UHGV virus genome: UHGV-0138535
Reading direction: 5' to 3' (one strand)
DNA: 53,721 bases
From: a virus
Shown piece after piece: positions 5,243 through 15,520 of this stretch; within the stretch, counting starts at the first letter, position 1, and each line of letters starts with the position of its first letter. The notes below the pieces were generated by a model. It had not been told where the DNA came from. It saw only the letters and a program-made list of their open reading frames with translations, and did no database searches. The position numbers and the translations under genes were made by a program.

Positions 5243-5647
5243 TCAAAACGGGATATCGTCATCAAAGTCCATCGGCGGATTATTCCCGTTATTATTCTGC
5301 TGCTGCGGAGGCGCTTTCTGCTGCTGGCCTTGTTGGTTAACGTTCATGAATTCAAATTCGTTAACCGCCACTTCTACCGCCGTTCCCTTCGTGCCGTCGT
5401 TCCGGTCATATTGCCGAACATCCAGGCGACCGCTTACCACTATTTTTCCACCCTTGCGGATATGTGGCGCTAATTTTTCCGCACGCTCACCAAATACCAG
5501 GCAAGTGACCCACATTGTCCGCTTATTATCGCCGTAGCCATTCGTTACAGCTAACGGAAAACTACCAATCGCTTTCCCGTTTTGTGTGTAGCGAACCTCC
5601 ATATCATTACCGATATTCCCGCCCAGCGTGATTGAATTTAAACTCAT
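5243..5647 (-). CDS. ssb: single-stranded DNA-binding protein
   Basis: 134 aa; OB-fold N-terminus (LGGNIGNDMEVRYTQNG), Gln/Pro-rich linker and acidic tail PPMDFDDDIPF typical of SSB. Confidence 0.85.
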   Translation of the reverse strand: MSLNSITLGGNIGNDMEVRYTQNGKAIGSFPLAVTNGYGDNKRTMWVTCLVFGERAEKLAPHIRKGGKIVVSGRLDVRQYDRNDGTKGTAVEVAVNEFEFMNVNQQGQQQKAPPQQQNNNGNNPPMDFDDDIPF

Positions 5648-6291
5648 TAACCCATCTCCCCGTTAAGCTCTGCTACCCGGATGTCATAAACATCTTTTGC
5701 CTTGATTCGATGTTCCGATCCTTCCGGTAGTAATTTCCAGCATTTGCCAAATATTTCACGCAGCTTGTTAGCGTCCTGCGCTTTCGCTGCTGCATCACAG
5801 AAACGTGCTAATACTTCATCAGGATTTGGCGGCGCTTTCTGCTGCTGTGGTTGTTGTTTTGGTGGGTTTTTCTGCTGGCGAGGCTGCTGGCCTGTCTGCT
5901 TAGCGTATGCGTCAGTATCAGGATCTCGCGCATCATCAATGCAGAATAAACCGTTCAAAGCATATTTTCGCGCGTAACTTGATGTCGCACCTGTTAGCTG
6001 GCTTGCGTCCATTCCCTTCTTGCTTTCTTCTTCCCTGGCGTAAGCCGTTACCGCTATTTCGTCTTCACCGTCGCTTAGCGTCGCCGTAGCTTTCACATAA
6101 TAGCGATTGCCGATCAGGACAATTTCATCGCTTACAGTCAGCGTAATACTTTGAAGCAGTGGTTTAACCGCCTCTAAAATATCCTCCGCCGACCTGTAAT
6201 TATATCCACCAAAATTATTACGCTGATTTTTCGGCGCGTTCAGCGTTTGCTGAATCGTCCATAGCTTTTTATGTAACTCTGTTTTCACCAT
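5647..6291 (-). CDS. erf: Erf-family single-strand annealing recombinase
   Basis: 214 aa; conserved block NAPKNQRNNFGGYNYRSAEDILEAVKPLL...DEIVLIGNRYYVKATATL...GATSSYARKYALNGLF matches P22 Erf family. Confidence 0.85.
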   Translation of the reverse strand: MVKTELHKKLWTIQQTLNAPKNQRNNFGGYNYRSAEDILEAVKPLLQSITLTVSDEIVLIGNRYYVKATATLSDGEDEIAVTAYAREEESKKGMDASQLTGATSSYARKYALNGLFCIDDARDPDTDAYAKQTGQQPRQQKNPPKQQPQQQKAPPNPDEVLARFCDAAAKAQDANKLREIFGKCWKLLPEGSEHRIKAKDVYDIRVAELNGEMG

Positions 6292-6822: not shown

Positions 6823-7195
6823 GCTTAACATCTTTCAACTAATCCCGCAATCATCGCCGTTCCCGGCGTGACCTTGCTCACTCCAAGCAAGCTGACTCGT
6901 CGCCTTGCGTGCGGTTTCGTGGGGGATGTAACGCTTTAAACACCCCATGCGCCTTGTTATCAGTGCCGCTTTCGGTCCCCCATCGGGGAGTTACTCCACG
7001 GTTGACAAGGTGTTAAGCCTGATTTTTAAAGTGCCAGGAAGTTGCTTTTGTTACCTGCGCCCTTCCTTTGACTCGCAATATACGCCCCGTAAAACATCGA
7101 GTCAATCCATTTTGTATACTTTTTTTAAAATATTTTATATGCCATTGATATTTAAATAATAAATAACGTTTTCTGTTTACGTTTTGGTGTTTTCC

Positions 7196-7229: not shown

Positions 7230-7877
7230 TTATGGCAGGTTTACGATCTTCGCATCAACCACCACGCCTATAATTTTTGATTCTGGATTCATAGGGATTG
7301 GCGGATACAGCGGATTGAGCGAACGTAAAAGCCTTTGACCTCCATCAATAATCAACTGTTTAAACGTCGGTATCTGCCCTTCCTCAAGCTGGGCTATAAC
7401 CAGTTTGCCGTCAATAGCTGGCGCGTGCGGGTCCACAAGTATCATCGTCCCCGCCGGGATGCTCAACCCCTGCGGCGCGTTCATTGATTCACCTTTGGCA
7501 ACCAGCCAGTAACTGTCATCTGAACAAATAACGCTAGTCGTAACGTGTCGTAATGCTGAACGCCTTGCGTCATCCATATTGTTTACTGTGTCCTTCCAGT
7601 CAATAACCGGGTAACTACCTAAATCACGCGGCGGCACGGCCTGAAGTGTATTAGAAACAGAATCATCAATGACCATGCCATCATGTGTAACAGTAAACTG
7701 CCGACGACCAAGCTCGCGCATAATCCGCGCAATATCTTCAAGATTTGGCTCTCGGCGACCGTTCAGCCAGTGTGACAGGCCGCCTTTAGTTATCCCCATA
7801 CGATCCGCGAGTGAATCCTGGCTCATGCCCTGCGCCCGCATGAGCTGCTTTGCTAAGTCATACCATTTTGTTTTCAT
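7230..7877 (-). CDS. CI-like prophage repressor (HTH plus S24 LexA-type peptidase domain)
   Basis: 215 aa; N-terminal HTH (SQDSLADRMGITKGGLSHWLNG), C-terminal peptidase with AKGESM serine motif. Confidence 0.85.
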   Translation of the reverse strand: MKTKWYDLAKQLMRAQGMSQDSLADRMGITKGGLSHWLNGRREPNLEDIARIMRELGRRQFTVTHDGMVIDDSVSNTLQAVPPRDLGSYPVIDWKDTVNNMDDARRSALRHVTTSVICSDDSYWLVAKGESMNAPQGLSIPAGTMILVDPHAPAIDGKLVIAQLEEGQIPTFKQLIIDGGQRLLRSLNPLYPPIPMNPESKIIGVVVDAKIVNLP

Positions 7878-8040
7878 GTCGCTACCCTATAACCTCAAAA
7901 AGTTTGATGCAAGTCACAAAACGTGTATTTTAAGCCTTGATCTTAAAATTCCATTTTGTAAACTTGCAGACAAGGTAAGGCCATACTTGCAAAGACGCAA
8001 GGAAAAAGATAACTGAAGGCACAAAAAGGCACTTACCTTA
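7878..8040. promoter_or_regulatory. immunity-region operator/promoter segment
   Basis: Divergent intergenic region with repeated TGCAAG/CTTGCA half-sites (CTTGCAAAGACGCAAG, CTTGCAGACAAG) and a CCATTTTGTAAACTT motif; no Cro-sized ORF found. Confidence 0.4.
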
Positions 8041-8073: not shown

Positions 8074-8182
8074 AAAAACAAATATCACGCAACGGCGGGA
8101 TCTGTTGAGCGGTCAGTCACTGCTATCTAATGCTAATGGGATGCCCGCCCGCGCGTTCACTCTAACCATAGGAGAAAATGCG

Positions 8183-8440
8183 ATGAGTATGAACATGATT
8201 AGTAAAGCATGGAACGTAAAACTTAATAGCCCGATTCAAAAACTTGTCTTAATGGCTCTGGCTGAAAAGGCAGATAACAAAGGACGGGTACATGATGCAT
8301 CACGCAAAGAAGTAGCCGCAATGTGTGAACTTCCTGTTCATACGGTACATGATGCCTTCGCCGCGTTAATGGATAAAGGATTTGTTTGTCGTCTTGATGC
8401 ATTCAGTGATGTCTATGTAGTGATGTTGCCGGAGGGATGA
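8183..8440 (+). CDS. winged-helix DNA-binding protein (HTH_36-like)
   Basis: In-frame ATG at 8183 with GGAGAAAA RBS inside track ORF 8105..8440 (track start is TTG); LNSPIQKLVLMALAEKADNKGRV...VHTVHDAFAALMDKGFV. Confidence 0.6.
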   Translation: MSMNMISKAWNVKLNSPIQKLVLMALAEKADNKGRVHDASRKEVAAMCELPVHTVHDAFAALMDKGFVCRLDAFSDVYVVMLPEG

Positions 8441-8443
8441 TCT

Positions 8444-9496
8444 ATGAAGTGGTTTAAGCATGACAGCGATGCGAACCGCGATGAAAAACTTCAAAACGTT
8501 TTGTTAGATTATGGCCTGGAAGGGTACGGGCTTTATTGGTATTGCCTCGAACTAATAACTTATGACGTAGATCAGCACAATCTGAATTTTGACCTACGAC
8601 ATGACGCGAGAATCATTGCGCGAAACGTCGGATCTACTGAAAAACGTATAGAAGAAATGATGAAATACTTCATCGAAATTGGTTTGTTTGAATGTTCTCA
8701 AGGCCACATAACTTGTTTAAAGTTATTGAAAAGGCTGGACCAATCAATGACTTCTAAAAGCGCTTACAGGGCCGCCATAAACACAGCGAAGGAGCAATTA
8801 AAATTAGAAAAGTTAATCAATCCAACACAAAAAGGTCATGATAGGGTCATGACCGGGTCAGGAAAGGGTCATGAATTAGAATTAGAAGTAGAAAAAGAAA
8901 GAGAAAAAGATATATACACTTCGTGTATTGTCGAAAATGAACAAAAAATGGTCAATCAGGATGGCGTAAACGAAGCGGCATTGCGTTGCCTTGCCTTCTA
9001 CAACGACAAGGCAGGATGCAAATGTCGTGATGCTAAGCCATTCGTAGAACTACTGACAGAAACAAAAACACGTAAAGCGTATACGGAGAATGAGATCACG
9101 TTAGTAATTGAGTGGGCTTTAACCCAATGGCGTAGCCGTGGTGGAGTACCTAAGCCTATCAACATTTGCCGGGTAACTAAATTTGATGGGTATCTGACTG
9201 ATGCTGAACAATGGCGCAAACTGTCAGCCACTGTAAACGCTGCCGACGTGGTGGAAGCATTTAACAGCACGTTTGACGGCCTGTTACCACCTGCCGAACT
9301 GGATCGGGATCTTGAACGCAAGATCTATGCGTTCACTGACTACCTGAAAGACAAAAGCATTAACGGCTTTGTCGCCTACTTCGAAACGTTCAAAAACACG
9401 GCTTCAGATTTTTACTTCGGCGATGGCTTCACCGCGACACTTGATTTCCTGCTTAAACCAAAAACGCTACGTGATACGCGCGCTGGCGTTCTTTGA
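8444..9496 (+). CDS. replication initiation protein (DnaD-like N-terminal replisome organiser domain)
   Basis: 350 aa; N-terminus MKWFKHDSDANRDEKLQNVLLDYGLEGYGLYWYCLE typical of phage replisome organisers; precedes helicase. Confidence 0.7.
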   Translation: MKWFKHDSDANRDEKLQNVLLDYGLEGYGLYWYCLELITYDVDQHNLNFDLRHDARIIARNVGSTEKRIEEMMKYFIEIGLFECSQGHITCLKLLKRLDQSMTSKSAYRAAINTAKEQLKLEKLINPTQKGHDRVMTGSGKGHELELEVEKEREKDIYTSCIVENEQKMVNQDGVNEAALRCLAFYNDKAGCKCRDAKPFVELLTETKTRKAYTENEITLVIEWALTQWRSRGGVPKPINICRVTKFDGYLTDAEQWRKLSATVNAADVVEAFNSTFDGLLPPAELDRDLERKIYAFTDYLKDKSINGFVAYFETFKNTASDFYFGDGFTATLDFLLKPKTLRDTRAGVL

Positions 9497-9629
9497 CCAA
9501 TCACGATCCGCAAAAATCCAAAATTACCCACAAAACAACCTCACCAGCGAGCTAAATCGCATGTGGTGCTACACTTGCTTACCTTTTTGCGATTAGCTCG
9601 TTATAGAGCGTTACGGAGAGGATTTTAAA

Positions 9630-9731
9630 ATGGACGGTAAACACGTTTTCGCCCTGGCTTTTGCCATCGCTGCGGCAATCGCTGTTAACGTCGCCTTGTT
9701 CGGCGGTCTGTACCTGCTAATCAATCCATAA
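9630..9731 (+). CDS. hydrophobic micro-protein (33 aa, single predicted TM helix)
   Basis: ATG preceded by GGAGAGG; MDGKHVFALAFAIAAAIAVNVALFGGLYLLINP; not in track. Confidence 0.35.
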   Translation: MDGKHVFALAFAIAAAIAVNVALFGGLYLLINP

Positions 9732-9870
9732 CCTACCTACCATTCTGTAAATCGAAAATTAGCCACCTGATGGCGTCTCTGACGCAATAAGACACTGCAA
9801 CCTGTGCAAACGGGTGTCGCGGTGGGTTTTTGCGTTGTAGCGCGCATGATGTTCTTAAGGAGTTGGAGCG

Positions 9871-10407
9871 ATGCGCAAGTTAACACATGAAGAACAAGTT
9901 GCAGCTATCGCGAAAGTTAATCCTGATGTTGAAGTGCTGGTTGAAATAGTTAATAACAGTACAAAAGTATTATGCCGCTGCAAGGTTTGTGATCATGAGT
10001 GGTCGGCTAAACCTAGAGACATTAAGAGCGGGCGCGGTTGCCCGAAATGCGCTAAATACGGGTTTTTATCACACTACAACGGAAAACTTTACATCATGGT
10101 TGATGATCTTGAAGTGCCTACACAAATGAAAATTGGTGTAAGCGTAAAAGAGAACGAAAGGAGGAACAGAGTATTTAAAAGTGCTCGTAAGGCAGGTGTA
10201 AGGCTGACTGATTTACAGGTAGTTAAAACATGGAATGGGCCTACTGAGATTATGCAGGAAATAGAAAGCAAAATGCACGATGCTTTCAGTGACTATAAAA
10301 TAAACTTCCCTGTTAAGTTTGATGGTAGCACTGAATTTTTTTATTACAGGCCGGAAGTATTCGACATGGTAGAAGAAACATATAAAGAGATTGTTTGCTG
10401 TCAATAA
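9871..10407 (+). CDS. zinc-ribbon plus T5orf172/GIY-YIG-like domain protein
   Basis: 178 aa; CRCKVCDHEW...CPKCA zinc ribbon; GKLYIMVDD...KIGVS...ENERRNRV...HDAF...GSTEFFYY resembles T5orf172 motifs; AT-rich; own RBS AAGGAG. Confidence 0.55.
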   Translation: MRKLTHEEQVAAIAKVNPDVEVLVEIVNNSTKVLCRCKVCDHEWSAKPRDIKSGRGCPKCAKYGFLSHYNGKLYIMVDDLEVPTQMKIGVSVKENERRNRVFKSARKAGVRLTDLQVVKTWNGPTEIMQEIESKMHDAFSDYKINFPVKFDGSTEFFYYRPEVFDMVEETYKEIVCCQ

Positions 10408-10440
10408 ATATACAAAATGTAAACATGAGGAAATAACATT

Positions 10441-11559
10441 ATGTCGCAAAGAAAAATCAGCGATGAGCAATTGATCGCTGAATATAACAACGGTTTAACG
10501 TACAAGCAGATCGCTGAAAAATATGGCATGTCAAAACGCAACGTCGAGCGGCTGGGCGCAAAGCTGGCGAAACGCGGTTTATTATCAACGCGCCGCGCCC
10601 CTGGTTTTGGCGTTACTGGTGAGTCGGTTCTTGTCGATAAGGATGGGAATACAGTCATGCGCTGGATTAAAACAGCCCGTGATCGCGATGAAATGGAAAG
10701 GCTAATGGAAGCGGCCCGCGACGCTTTCACTGAAGAAATCCCACGCGCGGAGGCCGTGCCAGTGCCGGAAATTGATTTTCAAAAAAGCCTGGCCCTTTAT
10801 CCGGTATTTGATCTGCATATCGGGGCGCTTGCTCATAAAGCTGAATGCGGCGAGAGTTACGACACTGGGATCGCTGAGCGCGTATTGAATGAATTCTTTG
10901 ACTACGCTGTAGGCGCTGCGCCGATGTCTGAGAAAGCTGTTTTGCTTCTCGGTGGGGATGTTCTTCACACTGACGGGCTGTTGCCAGTTACGCCATCAAG
11001 CAATCACGTTCTTGATTGCGATTCGCGCTATGCAAAACTTGTCTATGTAGCGATCAGGTCGGTCCGGCGGGCTGTCGGGAAGATGTTGTTAAATCATAGG
11101 GATATTGAAATCCAGGTACTATCAGGCAATCACGACCAGTCTGGTATGATTTGGCTACGTGCTGCGCTGGCGGCTTTTTACGAAGACGAACCGCGCGTAA
11201 CTGTTGATGTGTCCCCTGCTATCGTCCACCACACACAGTACGGCAAAACATTCCTTGCTTACCACCACGGGCACACTATCAAAAAGCCGGAAAATTTATT
11301 GTCTGCTTGCGTAGCTGACTGGCGTGAGGATTTCGGCAAGTCTGCGGCGGTTTACGCTCATTGCGGGCACTGGCACCATCAACGGCTGATTGAATCATCG
11401 CTAGGCGTTGTTGAGTATCACGGCACATTAGCGGGCAAAGACGCTTATTCAACTAATGGCGGCTGGCGGTCGCGGCGTCTGGCAGCGGTGATTATTTACA
11501 GCCCGGATCATGGGGAGATCGGGCGCTTTGTTTATTACCCTGAACATTCCATTTTGTAA
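10441..11559 (+). CDS. HTH domain fused to calcineurin-like metallophosphoesterase
   Basis: 372 aa; N-terminal sigma-70 region 4-like HTH; phosphoesterase motifs FDLHIG, GGDVLHTDG, GNHD, HHGH, GHWHH. Confidence 0.6.
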   Translation: MSQRKISDEQLIAEYNNGLTYKQIAEKYGMSKRNVERLGAKLAKRGLLSTRRAPGFGVTGESVLVDKDGNTVMRWIKTARDRDEMERLMEAARDAFTEEIPRAEAVPVPEIDFQKSLALYPVFDLHIGALAHKAECGESYDTGIAERVLNEFFDYAVGAAPMSEKAVLLLGGDVLHTDGLLPVTPSSNHVLDCDSRYAKLVYVAIRSVRRAVGKMLLNHRDIEIQVLSGNHDQSGMIWLRAALAAFYEDEPRVTVDVSPAIVHHTQYGKTFLAYHHGHTIKKPENLLSACVADWREDFGKSAAVYAHCGHWHHQRLIESSLGVVEYHGTLAGKDAYSTNGGWRSRRLAAVIIYSPDHGEIGRFVYYPEHSIL

Positions 11560-11577
11560 ACAGGAGGCAATAACATA

Positions 11578-12999
11578 ATGGTAACTGAGCAAATAAACTC
11601 ACTACGGCAGGAACGTGAAGCGTCAGTTATCGGCGGGCTGCTGTTAGGTGGCCTTACTCCTAACGCTCAAGATGTTCTCGCCACACTTGATCCTGAAGTG
11701 TTCACGATCCCGCTTTATAAACGTGCGTTTGAAGTTATCCGGGCGCAAGCCAGAAACAGAAATCTTATCGACGCTTTATTGGTTGGCGATGAAATTGGCA
11801 ATGAAAACTTTGTACCACTGATGCAAACGGCGCGATCGTGTCCTTCTGCTGCCAACCTGAAGGGATACGCACAGCTACTACGTGAAGAGCACCAGCGGCG
11901 GCAGATGTTGGAACTCATCGACGATATGCGCTACAAACTGGAAACGGGGACGCTTGAAGTCGTCAGGGAGACGATGAAAGATTTTGATTCCCGGTATTCA
12001 AAATTAAAGGTAACAAAAGATCAAATTATCCCGGTGCTGTTGCGCGATGCGGTCCAGGAATACACGGAAGTGTTAAGTAAACGCATGGAGTGTGGCGTGA
12101 ACTCTGACAACATCAAAACAGGGATTGACCCACTCGACGAAATGTTAGGCGGCATTAACGCTACTGATCTGGTGCTTATCGCCGGACGCCCAGGGTCTGG
12201 TAAATCGGCGTTGGCGTTGGCAATTGCCCGCGCGGCGGCTGAACGTCCATACCCTGGAGGCGAAGGTCAGCGGGTCGGCGTTTTGCTGTTCACGCTTGAA
12301 ATGTCGCTCGATCAGATGACTGAACGCGCTATCGCTGGCGCGGGTAACTTATCAACGGATTGCCTACGTAATCCGGTAAAACTGGATGACGAAGGTTGGG
12401 CGCACGTAGCACAGGGAATGAGCGCCCTTGCCGATCTCGACGTGTGGATTGTTGACGCATCGCAGTTAACGGTCGAGGAAATACGCGCCACCGTCGAACG
12501 GATGAAACAGGACCATCCTAACCTGGGGATGGTAATGATTGACTACATCGGGTTAATGAAGCTGGCTAAGGCCGAGCGTCATGATCTCGCTGTAGGGCAA
12601 TTGTCGTGGTCATTGAAAATGATGGCGAAGGAGTTGCGCGTGCCAGTAGCGGCACTTGCGCAATTATCCCGCCGCGTTGAGGAACGACCGAACAAGCGCC
12701 CGAACAATTCTGATCTGCGTGATTCCGGTAATCTTGAACAAGACGCAGACCGGATCATCATGGTCTACCGCGACGGCTACTACAACGAACAATCTGTTGC
12801 CCGCGAATACATGGAGATTATCGTTTCAAAAAACCGTCACGGGAAAACGGGTACTGTTTACCAGCGGTTTGATGATAACGGCAACATTTTACCATGCGAC
12901 CAGGCCCGCGCGGCTTCGGCTTGCATTCAGTCTATGCAACAACGTCCGTCTGCAAGCCGATTCTCACCACGAAACAACCAGAATAACGCATCTTTTTAA
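11578..12999 (+). CDS. DnaB-family replicative helicase
   Basis: 473 aa; Walker A GRPGSGKS, DnaB-like N-terminal domain and RecA-like C-terminal motifs. Confidence 0.85.
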   Translation: MVTEQINSLRQEREASVIGGLLLGGLTPNAQDVLATLDPEVFTIPLYKRAFEVIRAQARNRNLIDALLVGDEIGNENFVPLMQTARSCPSAANLKGYAQLLREEHQRRQMLELIDDMRYKLETGTLEVVRETMKDFDSRYSKLKVTKDQIIPVLLRDAVQEYTEVLSKRMECGVNSDNIKTGIDPLDEMLGGINATDLVLIAGRPGSGKSALALAIARAAAERPYPGGEGQRVGVLLFTLEMSLDQMTERAIAGAGNLSTDCLRNPVKLDDEGWAHVAQGMSALADLDVWIVDASQLTVEEIRATVERMKQDHPNLGMVMIDYIGLMKLAKAERHDLAVGQLSWSLKMMAKELRVPVAALAQLSRRVEERPNKRPNNSDLRDSGNLEQDADRIIMVYRDGYYNEQSVAREYMEIIVSKNRHGKTGTVYQRFDDNGNILPCDQARAASACIQSMQQRPSASRFSPRNNQNNASF

Positions 13000-13077
13000 T
13001 TAACTTGAGAAACGGCTTACCGGAAAGTTTACCGCTTTCTGGTGGCTGTTTTCGCGCTTAAATCGAGGCTAGAAACA

Positions 13078-13605
13078 ATGAAAACCATTTATAAAACACA
13101 AATAGCGAAATTTTTACAGGATGCCACTGTTGCTGGTGAAGCAACAATTATTAAATCTATTCCAGGTCCTGAAATCGAGATCGTTAATAGTTTGCGTGAT
13201 ATGGTTTCTGACGGCGCTATTATTCCTGTGGAAATGGGAGGGCCGCGATTATCATATTGCTTGAAGTCAGTGCGCGAAATGGCAATAAAAAAAATCATGC
13301 CTTTATTTCTGAATAGTAGCAATTATTTTTCTGCTGAGGATGTTAAAAAAGAATTAAAACTCGAAATAAAACAGAGGAAAATTTGTCGGGTTTTAAAGAT
13401 GTTAGGCAGTGAAAATTTATTAACAGTTAATAAATTTGATGGGAAATACTTTTTTAGATCAGCTCGCTTCTATGGTTGTTCGAGTCCTATCGTATTTGAA
13501 TTTAACAACCGCCTGAATGAATACCGGAAAAATAACGGCCTGCTGCCGGATAAACCAGTATTTGAGATCGAAAAACTTAACGGTGAAACGGGGTTGGAAT
13601 TATGA
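13078..13605 (+). CDS. hypothetical protein (AT-rich moron)
   Basis: ATG at 13078 with GAGG RBS inside track ORF 13042..13605; markedly AT-rich versus flanks. Confidence 0.45.
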   Translation: MKTIYKTQIAKFLQDATVAGEATIIKSIPGPEIEIVNSLRDMVSDGAIIPVEMGGPRLSYCLKSVREMAIKKIMPLFLNSSNYFSAEDVKKELKLEIKQRKICRVLKMLGSENLLTVNKFDGKYFFRSARFYGCSSPIVFEFNNRLNEYRKNNGLLPDKPVFEIEKLNGETGLEL

Positions 13606-13808
13606 GACGGGTAATCTTTTATTCAGTTGAAACGTTTATTGACGATACGCGCGTTTATTATCCGTGGGAAGTATACGACGCAAAGGTGTATACACCGCCA
13701 CTGATGCGGAAATATAAACACGTAAAATTTAACCGGGTTTTTGTACCAATGCGTGATGCACTGCAGGCGCTGCGCGGTGAATTACGAAACACAATGCGTA
13801 TTGTGTGA
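13602..13808 (+). CDS. hypothetical protein
   Basis: 68-aa track ORF, start overlaps upstream stop. Confidence 0.4.
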   Translation: MRRVIFYSVETFIDDTRVYYPWEVYDAKVYTPPLMRKYKHVKFNRVFVPMRDALQALRGELRNTMRIV

Positions 13809-13817
13809 GGTGGCGTT

Positions 13818-14015
13818 ATGGATAAGGAATTAGATTTAACAGTTGAAGACCTGAGCACGATTGCGGAATACATGCGCGACGATGATCCTGATCGTCCTGT
13901 CGTCGTTGATATGAAAAAACTAAAAAACGACCATATGGCTAGTTCAAGGCTCATTTCTTTATGGGCGATCATGTATGCGCGGGCGCAATGGAAAAATAGC
14001 AACGGTGTATTATGA
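13818..14015 (+). CDS. hypothetical protein
   Basis: 65-aa track ORF; stop overlaps ninB start. Confidence 0.4.
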   Translation: MDKELDLTVEDLSTIAEYMRDDDPDRPVVVDMKKLKNDHMASSRLISLWAIMYARAQWKNSNGVL

Positions 14016-14443
14016 GGCAAATTAGATTTGAGATAGTCAACGACGCCGTGAAAGAAAATGCTATCAGGCAGATAAGGGAAATACAGCCTGATAGCAAAAG
14101 CCCGCTGATAATCACCATCCAGGAGAAAACCCGCTCGCTAAGCCAAAATAGCCTTCTATGGGCGTTGCTAACCGACATTAGTGATCAGGTTAATTGGTAC
14201 GGTAAGAGGCTGTCGCCGGAAGACTGGAAGGCGGTATTCACTGCCGGGCTTAAGAAATATGGCGTTGTCCCTAACCTGGACAAATCAGGCTTTGTTGTGC
14301 TGGGAACATCAACCAGCCGGATGAGTAAAGCGGAATTTAGCGAATTAATCGAACTGATCTACTCGTTCGGCGCTGAGCATGGCGTTCAGTGGTCAGGTGA
14401 TACGAAATTAAACGAGGAATTTATAAAACGCTGGGGGCAATAA
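14012..14443 (+). CDS. ninB: NinB recombination protein
   Basis: 143 aa; closely parallels lambda NinB (TIQEKTRSLSQNSLLWALLTDISDQVNWYGKRL...VVPNL...GFVVLGTSTSRMSKAEFSELIELI). Confidence 0.8.
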   Translation: MRQIRFEIVNDAVKENAIRQIREIQPDSKSPLIITIQEKTRSLSQNSLLWALLTDISDQVNWYGKRLSPEDWKAVFTAGLKKYGVVPNLDKSGFVVLGTSTSRMSKAEFSELIELIYSFGAEHGVQWSGDTKLNEEFIKRWGQ

Positions 14444-14619
14444 TGGTTGAGTATTTTAAAGCTAAACCGACCGGGATTTATTACAAGGTAGAAAATGGTA
14501 ATGTGTTTTATCTTAATCGCGCGGCTAATGAGTGGCGAGAGTGTCAGTGCTACTACCTGAGAGATATTAGAAATCATCCACATTATTTTATTAAAGTTGA
14601 CGATGTACCAGTGGCATAA
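14443..14619 (+). CDS. small hypothetical protein (58 aa)
   Basis: ATG overlapping ninB stop (TAATG); not in track. Confidence 0.35.
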   Translation: MVEYFKAKPTGIYYKVENGNVFYLNRAANEWRECQCYYLRDIRNHPHYFIKVDDVPVA

Positions 14620-14633
14620 TTGAGGATAAACAA

Positions 14634-15290
14634 ATGAGTAAATCAAAAGCAATCGGTGTGATTAGCCATCGCACTAACCCTGAATGCTACCCATCGTTTG
14701 AAGTATCGACATGCAGGGAAGAATATAATTTTGGATCATGTTATTTAGTTGGTGTTCGCGCTGATCGCGGCACTTATTCTGTTATGGCGGCAAGCTGGAA
14801 GTTTGATAAATATGCCAATTTATCTAATAAAGATGATGATGGCATGAACAAAGAAAGTGAAATCATTGACGAATTAATCGAAGATGAGCGGCATGATTGC
14901 GATACGCCAGAAGTTACGGAATGGATGGCAGGAGAAAAGCCTCCATGCGGAGTATGGCTTGAGCTTCTAGATCCTGTCGATGGTCGGAAATATGTTATTC
15001 TGAAATACAAGTATATAAGTGATCGCCTTGCTCTTTTTGTAGAAATGGATGCGCCTGATTTTGAACAAGCCGGGGAATGGAAGCATTTCGCTCATAAGTT
15101 GTATGTAGATCCGAAAGAAAAAATACTGGCTGAAATTGCGTTTGCACTTGCTACTAAGGTTATCGGTGAAGATGCTGCAAAAGAAATTGATTTTAACCGC
15201 GACAACGAATTTTCGTGCGATTATCGCAATATGGCGCAAGCTATTATAGACGGATGTATAGGACACGTTGAATACACGGGGGGTGAATAA
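14634..15290 (+). CDS. hypothetical protein (AT-rich)
   Basis: 218-aa track ORF; AT-rich. Confidence 0.5.
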   Translation: MSKSKAIGVISHRTNPECYPSFEVSTCREEYNFGSCYLVGVRADRGTYSVMAASWKFDKYANLSNKDDDGMNKESEIIDELIEDERHDCDTPEVTEWMAGEKPPCGVWLELLDPVDGRKYVILKYKYISDRLALFVEMDAPDFEQAGEWKHFAHKLYVDPKEKILAEIAFALATKVIGEDAAKEIDFNRDNEFSCDYRNMAQAIIDGCIGHVEYTGGE

Positions 15291-15520
15291 TGGATAAAAC
15301 GGCAACAATTCTTCTTAGTCGCCCTGCCATCTGCCGTATGCTGGGGGGAATTAGCAGGGGAACGTTTTACTTATGGCGTAAAAAGTGGGAACGGAACGGA
15401 ACTCCGTTCCCGGCCCCTGTTGATGTACTTGGTACCGGGCGTGGCGTTATGTACCGCTATCAGGACGTAATGCAGTTCTTTGATCAGATTGGTTTAACGT
15501 CAGCCAAAGATAATACATAA
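15290..15520 (+). CDS. AlpA-family HTH regulator / putative excisionase
   Basis: 76 aa; ICRMLGGISRGTFYLWRKKWERNGTPFPAPVDVLGTGRGVMYRYQDVMQFF matches AlpA/Xis-type HTH; overlaps integrase 3' end convergently by 37 nt. Confidence 0.65.
   Translation: MDKTATILLSRPAICRMLGGISRGTFYLWRKKWERNGTPFPAPVDVLGTGRGVMYRYQDVMQFFDQIGLTSAKDNT

Follow-up and report, generated by a model that had tools for sequence, protein, structure and literature searches.

What is the function of a gene that stands between the replication initiator and the DnaB-type helicase of a temperate phage, and whose product joins a helix-turn-helix (HTH) to a metallophosphoesterase (MPE) domain? The question is raised by UHGV virus genome UHGV-0138535, analysed here as one stretch of 53,721 nt (the window). 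An initial annotation had placed this HTH-MPE gene where a helicase loader is expected, and had offered two readings of the product: a DNA-targeted phosphoesterase, or an anti-defence phosphodiesterase acting on signalling nucleotides. The first is the best reading, given that the nearest folds are DNA nucleases and that the gene keeps a DNA-metabolism context. We consider it probable that the product hydrolyses DNA in a metal-dependent manner, as a phosphodiesterase (nuclease) from the Mre11/SbcD/PolD-DP1-like branch of the MPEs, and that, tethered through its HTH, it serves as an accessory to replication, recombination or repair. The gene and its parts are:

10441..11559, + strand: HTH-MPE gene, 372 aa, ATG start, Shine-Dalgarno GAGGAAA, member of PHROG 704
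10462..10572, + strand: N-terminal three-helix HTH, sigma-70 region 4 / LuxR-GerE-like, aa 8-44 (family profile against GerE, E 0.018)
10606..10731, + strand: linker module, beta-hairpin (aa 56-80) and helix (aa 82-97), from the secondary structure of the AlphaFold2 (AF2) model and from conservation
10777..11556, + strand: MPE domain, aa 113-372, with motifs I-V and three family-specific, highly conserved loops (aa 127-143, 174-197 and 327-349)

The fusion of an HTH to an MPE domain with ordered signature motifs was borne out. All of the peptides quoted in the initial annotation were found in the same order, the HTH segment being aa 19-38, and the five MPE motifs lie at aa 123-128, 171-179, 229-232, 275-278 and 309-313. 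Conservation was assessed in an alignment of 120 relatives with 29-58% identity to the window protein. Residues D124, H126, G172, D173, T184, N230, H231, H276, G309 and H312 are invariant in this alignment, and H176, D178, H310, D192, D194 and R196 are at least 93% conserved. As expected of the superfamily, the ligand motifs for a binuclear metal centre (DxH, GD, GNH[DE], H and GHxH) are supplied by D124/H126, D173, N230/H231, H276 and H310/H312, respectively. The metal-binding residues, on whose conservation the initial proposal depended, are therefore invariant or nearly so, and the catalytic centre of the window protein is intact and of the binuclear-metal type.

An AF2 model built from close homologues only left the three conserved loops disordered (pLDDT 75), and a model built from a diverse alignment reached a pLDDT of 94.4 and a pTM of 0.81. 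In the latter, the three helices of the HTH span aa 8-44, a long beta-hairpin followed by a helix takes up aa 56-97, and aa 113-372 form a compact MPE domain with the beta-sandwich fold of the superfamily. G69 and W75 of the hairpin-helix linker are nearly invariant across relatives. No C-terminal capping domain was seen in the model, the approximately 60 aa after motif V forming core strands, and fold comparison returned DNA nucleases as the nearest folds. The three clade-specific loops are the most conserved segments of the alignment and the HTH is the least conserved part. This combination of a variable HTH with a conserved enzyme suggests that the HTH provides phage-specific targeting. We infer that the enzyme acts on DNA, that its HTH is a DNA-binding element and that the protein has a biological role in DNA metabolism.

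The initial annotation had implied that the fusion was new; it is instead old, conserved and already catalogued (in PHROG 704 and in many GenBank records) and not a local invention, because the same architecture recurs across thousands of phages and because members of the family match Pfam profiles for both halves. Residues 4-368 of the window protein align with positions 2-387 of the 390 in the phrog_704 'DNA repair exonuclease' profile (E 8.9e-138), which amounts to full-length membership. Among the 120 members, the HTH was matched by HTH_1 in 27, Sigma70_r4_2 in 12 (best 1.5e-9) and GerE in five, and the enzyme by Metallophos in 26 and Metallophos_2 in 19. Relatives were found by tblastn in 2,043 of 50,697 phage records (~4%), with query coverage of at least 80% in 1,957, and the phage homologues listed range in identity from 97% down to about 26-30%. 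The carriers include T1 and other Drexlerviridae, Jerseyvirus/Guernseyvirinae and Vibrio phages, together with an N4-like phage, a T7-like phage of Ralstonia and a T4-like one of Campylobacter. When 1.84 billion cluster representatives were scanned exhaustively with HMMER, 4,338 hits were obtained at E <= 0.001, 916 of them at E <= 1e-30, so that the family comprises no fewer than 4,338 clusters at 50% identity. Of the 4,338 hits, 150 were listed, and almost all of these are 360-430 aa long with motif I at about residue 125-170, and nearly all of these 150 carry an N-terminal extension before motif I that resembles LuxR or sigma-70 region 4. The gene also occurs inside prophages in 35 of 5,426 complete Escherichia coli genomes, always labelled 'hypothetical protein'. 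The window gene is thus an ordinary member of a very large, catalogued phage family, found in a lineage-specific position.

The closest relative of the window protein, at 97% aa identity, is gene 10 of Escherichia phage mEp044 ('hypothetical protein'). ORF16 of phage T1 (AAP49983) is 57.9% identical and hits phrog_704; its record labels it 'exonuclease', with the note 'HHPred 99% to E. coli SbcD 4LTY'. T1 ORF16, its counterpart in Salmonella phage slyngel and the 'calcineurin-like phosphoesterase' of Jerseyvirus share the order of HTH, hairpin-helix and MPE domain with the window protein, and all catalytic residues are common to them. The family name 'DNA repair exonuclease' itself derives solely from remote homology, and our literature searches for the phrog_704 family returned no publication on the biochemistry, and no assay or knockout, of any member.

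Public annotation of the family is inconsistent. Close homologues (P0004, P0054 and OK108609) carry the conflicting labels 'Rrf2 family transcriptional regulator', 'DNA polymerase II small subunit' and 'oxidoreductase', and other labels among the same homologues are 'winged helix-turn-helix domain-containing protein' and 'hypothetical protein'.

How, then, does the family relate to enzymes of known activity? In Mre11/SbcD a capping domain follows the phosphoesterase core, whereas the window protein has none, and its family has the three conserved loops of its own and the N-terminal HTH. A Rad50/SbcC-type structural maintenance of chromosomes (SMC) ATPase was not found among the profile-scanned flanking ORFs (open reading frames) at 8105-15520, large ORFs elsewhere (for example 19577..24547, 1656 aa) lying outside that scan, and none is annotated in the T1 region examined. 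E. coli SbcD belongs to phrog_100 and gp47 of mycobacteriophage Bxb1 to phrog_221, whilst the window protein, T1 ORF16 and gp119 of Campylobacter phage PC14, a member without an HTH, belong to phrog_704. Against the PDB, the family profile gave Mre11/SbcD matches that were insignificant (E 0.37-1), and a single-sequence phmmer search returned noise only (an SDR oxidoreductase at E 0.05, and the HTH of IscR). Alignment of the family profile with E. coli SbcD, lambda NinI and Bxb1 gp47 by hhalign gave probabilities of <=7%, a set-up too weak to place the clade, and in the case of SbcD aligned motif III alone; a profile-profile comparison with a 25-sequence gp47 profile was likewise insignificant (probability 4%). 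Compared with DP1, the small subunit of archaeal PolD and a 3'-5' proofreading exonuclease, the window protein has 14% sequence identity and its AF2 model lacks the OB-fold domain; the nearby ORFs that were examined did not include a DP2 polymerase partner. The family is therefore best described as its own clade within the nuclease-like part of the MPE superfamily, and it is the orthologue of no characterised enzyme.

The motif II of lambda-type PPP phosphatases is GDxVDRG. Tested for sequence, fold and this motif, the window protein does not qualify as a PPP phosphatase of the NinI type. The initial annotation had rightly separated the protein from NinI, a Ser/Thr protein phosphatase to which it is unrelated; their common ground is the MPE superfamily and a phage origin.

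Other phage MPEs that like the window gene lie in a replication module are those of cluster A mycobacteriophages. Of these, gp48 of A10ZJ24 breaks down DNA in vitro as well as in vivo, and the phage depends on it for DNA replication in Mycobacterium tuberculosis (PMC12287305); Bxb1 gp47, a recombination directionality factor, is reported to be needed for replication. By analogy with gp48, the HTH-MPE protein could be a host-directed nuclease that degrades the bacterial chromosome for nucleotides, silences host defence genes, or both. Many carriers, such as the T1-like group, are virulent, and a dNMP-kinase-like gene often adjoins the gene, both in favour of such a role. However, gp47 and gp48 form a separate family (phrog_221) of approximately 255 aa proteins that lack an HTH and have motif I at residue 10, and a variable, probably sequence-specific HTH fits bulk degradation poorly. 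Moreover, the phage is temperate (it has cI, integrase, Erf and NinB) and carries the window copy in its early rightward operon, where indiscriminate destruction of host DNA would be expected to conflict with lysogeny. For this last reason controlled processing of phage DNA is favoured over bulk destruction of host DNA, and we regard a host-directed role as quite unlikely.

Gene context was surveyed by calling ORFs in 80 IMG/VR loci (36-95% identity) and clustering their products. About 20 of the 80, drawn from no fewer than three unrelated genome types, have a HAD_PNKP polynucleotide 3'-phosphatase (PF25109, E 8.5e-21) immediately after the gene, and after it comes a P-loop kinase of a dNMP-kinase PHROG. 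Two loci (L066 and L072) have an ATP-dependent DNA ligase downstream and, upstream, a FEN-like exonuclease and endonuclease VII. Ralstonia phage Reminis (L092) has the order endonuclease VII, HTH-MPE, polynucleotide kinase (PNK) and ligase; Campylobacter phage PC14 (L086) has a DNA ligase immediately upstream and RusA nearby; and in the N4-like phage SBP1 a phosphatase lies upstream. Altogether, end-processing neighbours were seen in L025-L032, L038, L041-L043, L046-L047, L052-L055, L066, L072, L092 and L086. By guilt by association, this looks like a recurring neighbourhood of DNA end processing, junction resolution and sealing. HNH and other homing endonucleases are also frequent neighbours (T1, LDW16, Vibrio 95E33-1, SBP1 and the window). 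Such enzymes tend to settle beside conserved genes, and their presence is consistent with the HTH-MPE gene being one.

The same neighbours bear on two further readings. The protein could be an end-healing phosphoesterase, a 3'-phosphatase or 2',3'-cyclic phosphodiesterase that works with a PNK-type kinase/phosphatase and a ligase, along the lines of the MPE domain of bacterial Pnkp. The recurrence of HAD_PNKP phosphatase, P-loop kinase and DNA ligase beside the gene in several unrelated lineages speaks for this, as does the MPE domain of Clostridium thermocellum Pnkp, which is a 2',3'-cyclic phosphodiesterase/monoesterase (PMC2190708 and PMC3675462); we nevertheless judge end healing to be unlikely as the principal activity. 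The second is the anti-defence proposal of the initial annotation, according to which the enzyme would destroy signalling nucleotides such as the messengers of CBASS, Pycsar, Thoeris or type III CRISPR systems. This was not supported. Its neighbours PNKP, ligase and endonuclease VII place the gene in DNA-metabolism modules and not in early accessory islands, the best fold matches are DNA nucleases, and the role would leave the conserved HTH unexplained. Known nucleotide-degrading anti-defence enzymes have other folds, Acb1 being a 2H phosphoesterase and Apyc1 a metallo-beta-lactamase (MBL) protein. The window protein shares neither fold nor profile with Acb1, Apyc1 or defence-associated families, its model having the MPE fold; the lack of a PADLOC hit points the same way but is weak evidence, the library holding defence systems rather than anti-defence proteins. 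An anti-defence function is thus very unlikely.

Does the position in front of the helicase indicate a function in helicase loading? mEp044 is one of the Nus-dependent, 'non-lambdoid' temperate coliphages that make up the mEpimmI group (PMC11893012), and the early region of the window matches its layout:

7230..7877: cI
8105..8440, + strand: replication initiator, first ORF, winged-HTH initiator N-terminus-like, 111 aa
8444..9496, + strand: replication initiator, second ORF, Lin1244_N / O-like, 350 aa
9871..10407, + strand: homing-endonuclease-like ORF with a DUF4379 zinc finger and a T5orf172/MUG113 domain, phrog_681
11546..11561, + strand: exact 16-mer ATTCCATTTTGTAAAC, overlapping the last HTH-MPE codons, just upstream of the dnaB ribosome-binding site
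11578..12999, + strand: DnaB-type replicative helicase (DnaB_C, E 1.1e-75; phrog_19, E 9e-110), 18 nt past the HTH-MPE gene

The split of the initiator into two ORFs is also seen in mEp044. Iterons of the type GGTCATGA, with 11 bp spacing, lie at 8834-8874 inside the O-like initiator gene and probably mark the replication origin. The slot between initiator and HTH-MPE gene varies: in the window it is filled by the homing-endonuclease-like ORF, in some sister phages by longer versions of that ORF with duplicated zinc-finger modules and in mEp044 by a Rha/KilAC antirepressor, whilst in locus L015 it is empty. The minus strand of the early region encodes an N-like antiterminator, an Erf-like annealing protein and SSB; dnaB is followed by a MarR-like ORF, NinB/Orf, a small DNA-binding protein and the integrase. 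The Erf-like protein and SSB fall within 5243-6291 (- strand), and NinB/Orf at 14012-14443 (+ strand).

The initial annotation was correct that the ORF lies directly upstream of a DnaB-like helicase; its statement that a helicase loader is expected there was not supported. As a loader or replisome adaptor, the protein would recruit or load the downstream helicase at the origin, in the role of lambda P, and conserved co-occurrence with DnaB would be anticipated. Instead, a DnaB cluster follows the gene only in mEpimmI-type loci (13 loci and the window), one phage group among the 80 loci. Carriers such as T1, Jerseyvirus, Vibrio, N4-like and T7-like phages have no adjacent DnaB, and some of them (T1, Jerseyvirus and Vibrio phages) lack DnaB altogether. 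The difference between the window gene and that of T1 is one of genomic seat only: in T1-like phages the gene closes an operon of superfamily 2 (SF2) helicase, resolvase and Dam methylase, with the lysis genes next, and in Jerseyvirus it lies in a small island between tail genes. Within the mEpimmI-type loci, one (L014) has two small ORFs between the HTH-MPE gene and dnaB, and the 16-mer stays with dnaB.

The protein matched no helicase-loader family (lambda P, DnaC/IstB AAA+ or SPP1 G39P) and no AAA+ P-loop in Pfam, PHROG or NCBIfam, the sole PHROG loader hit in the region being a weak P-loop match of the helicase itself. Its catalytic site is strictly conserved, in contrast to adaptor B-subunits, which are inactivated. 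The nearest outside relatives of the window helicase (54-58% aa identity) are those of Salmonella phages 34 and MG40, CUS-3 and phage 2851, that is, of P22-like, lambdoid and Stx phages. In their annotated records the tblastn match takes in both 'replicative helicase' and 'replication protein O', and the annotation shows no third gene separating the two, so the helicase directly follows the initiator. No loader is 'missing' from the window, because the closest relatives of its helicase occupy initiator-helicase modules without an intervening gene. In the mEpimmI lineage the HTH-MPE gene and its variable upstream slot have been inserted into a P22-type initiator-helicase module, and this position does not reflect a loader function, which we consider extremely unlikely.

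The 16-mer that overlaps the end of the gene has a second exact copy in the cI-cro intergenic region (7948-7963). With up to three mismatches, 10 matches were found in the window against 1.16 expected, at 7104, 7948, 11546, 27036(-), 30041, 30351, 41892, 46605, 53316(-) and 53381. The remaining copies are mostly intergenic, and some are paired with an inverted half, AAAATGG, on their upstream side. All 12 mEpimmI-type loci checked have the core CCATTTTGTA[AT]AC immediately before dnaB. The 16-mer is probably an operator or promoter element.

A dispersed motif flanking the gene, an HTH of the sigma-70 region 4 / LuxR type and the NCBI label 'Rrf2 family transcriptional regulator' of one close homologue would all suit a transcription regulator, in which the HTH controls phage promoters and the MPE domain acts as a sensor or accessory. 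Yet it is the enzyme, and not the HTH, that the family conserves, the PC14 gp119 member dispenses with the HTH altogether, and the 16-mer tracks dnaB and the immunity region, not the MPE gene. A regulatory function is highly improbable on this evidence. As the main explanation we thus rejected four readings: helicase loader, NinI-like phosphatase, phosphodiesterase of signalling nucleotides and transcription factor.

Returning to the HTH-tethered DNA nuclease that we favour, we propose that the N-terminal HTH would tether the nuclease domain to DNA, that the MPE nuclease may trim or open DNA ends, nicks or branched intermediates, and that the processed DNA could then be extended, annealed or ligated. 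No dedicated recombination exonuclease was found among the scanned ORFs, several ORFs of the leftward operon lying outside the scan; among the ORFs scanned, the HTH-MPE protein is for this reason the sole nuclease-like candidate besides the homing-endonuclease-like ORF. A more specific speculation is one that we hold tentatively and think rather unlikely as it stands: the HTH might guide a DP1/Mre11-like nuclease to a phage site or structure to make or trim a DNA end that serves as a replication entry, either a single-stranded DNA tail for a loader-less DnaB-type ring to thread onto or a 3' end used with Erf, SSB and NinB in recombination-dependent replication. If true, nuclease-assisted helicase loading and replication restart would be common to a huge set of phages.

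The family to which the window gene belongs is one of the more widespread phage DNA-metabolism proteins, and includes a gene of the classic phage T1. Once its substrate and the target of its HTH are defined, thousands of genomes would be annotated together, and knowledge of its function would reveal whether phage helicase modules without a loader depend on a nuclease.
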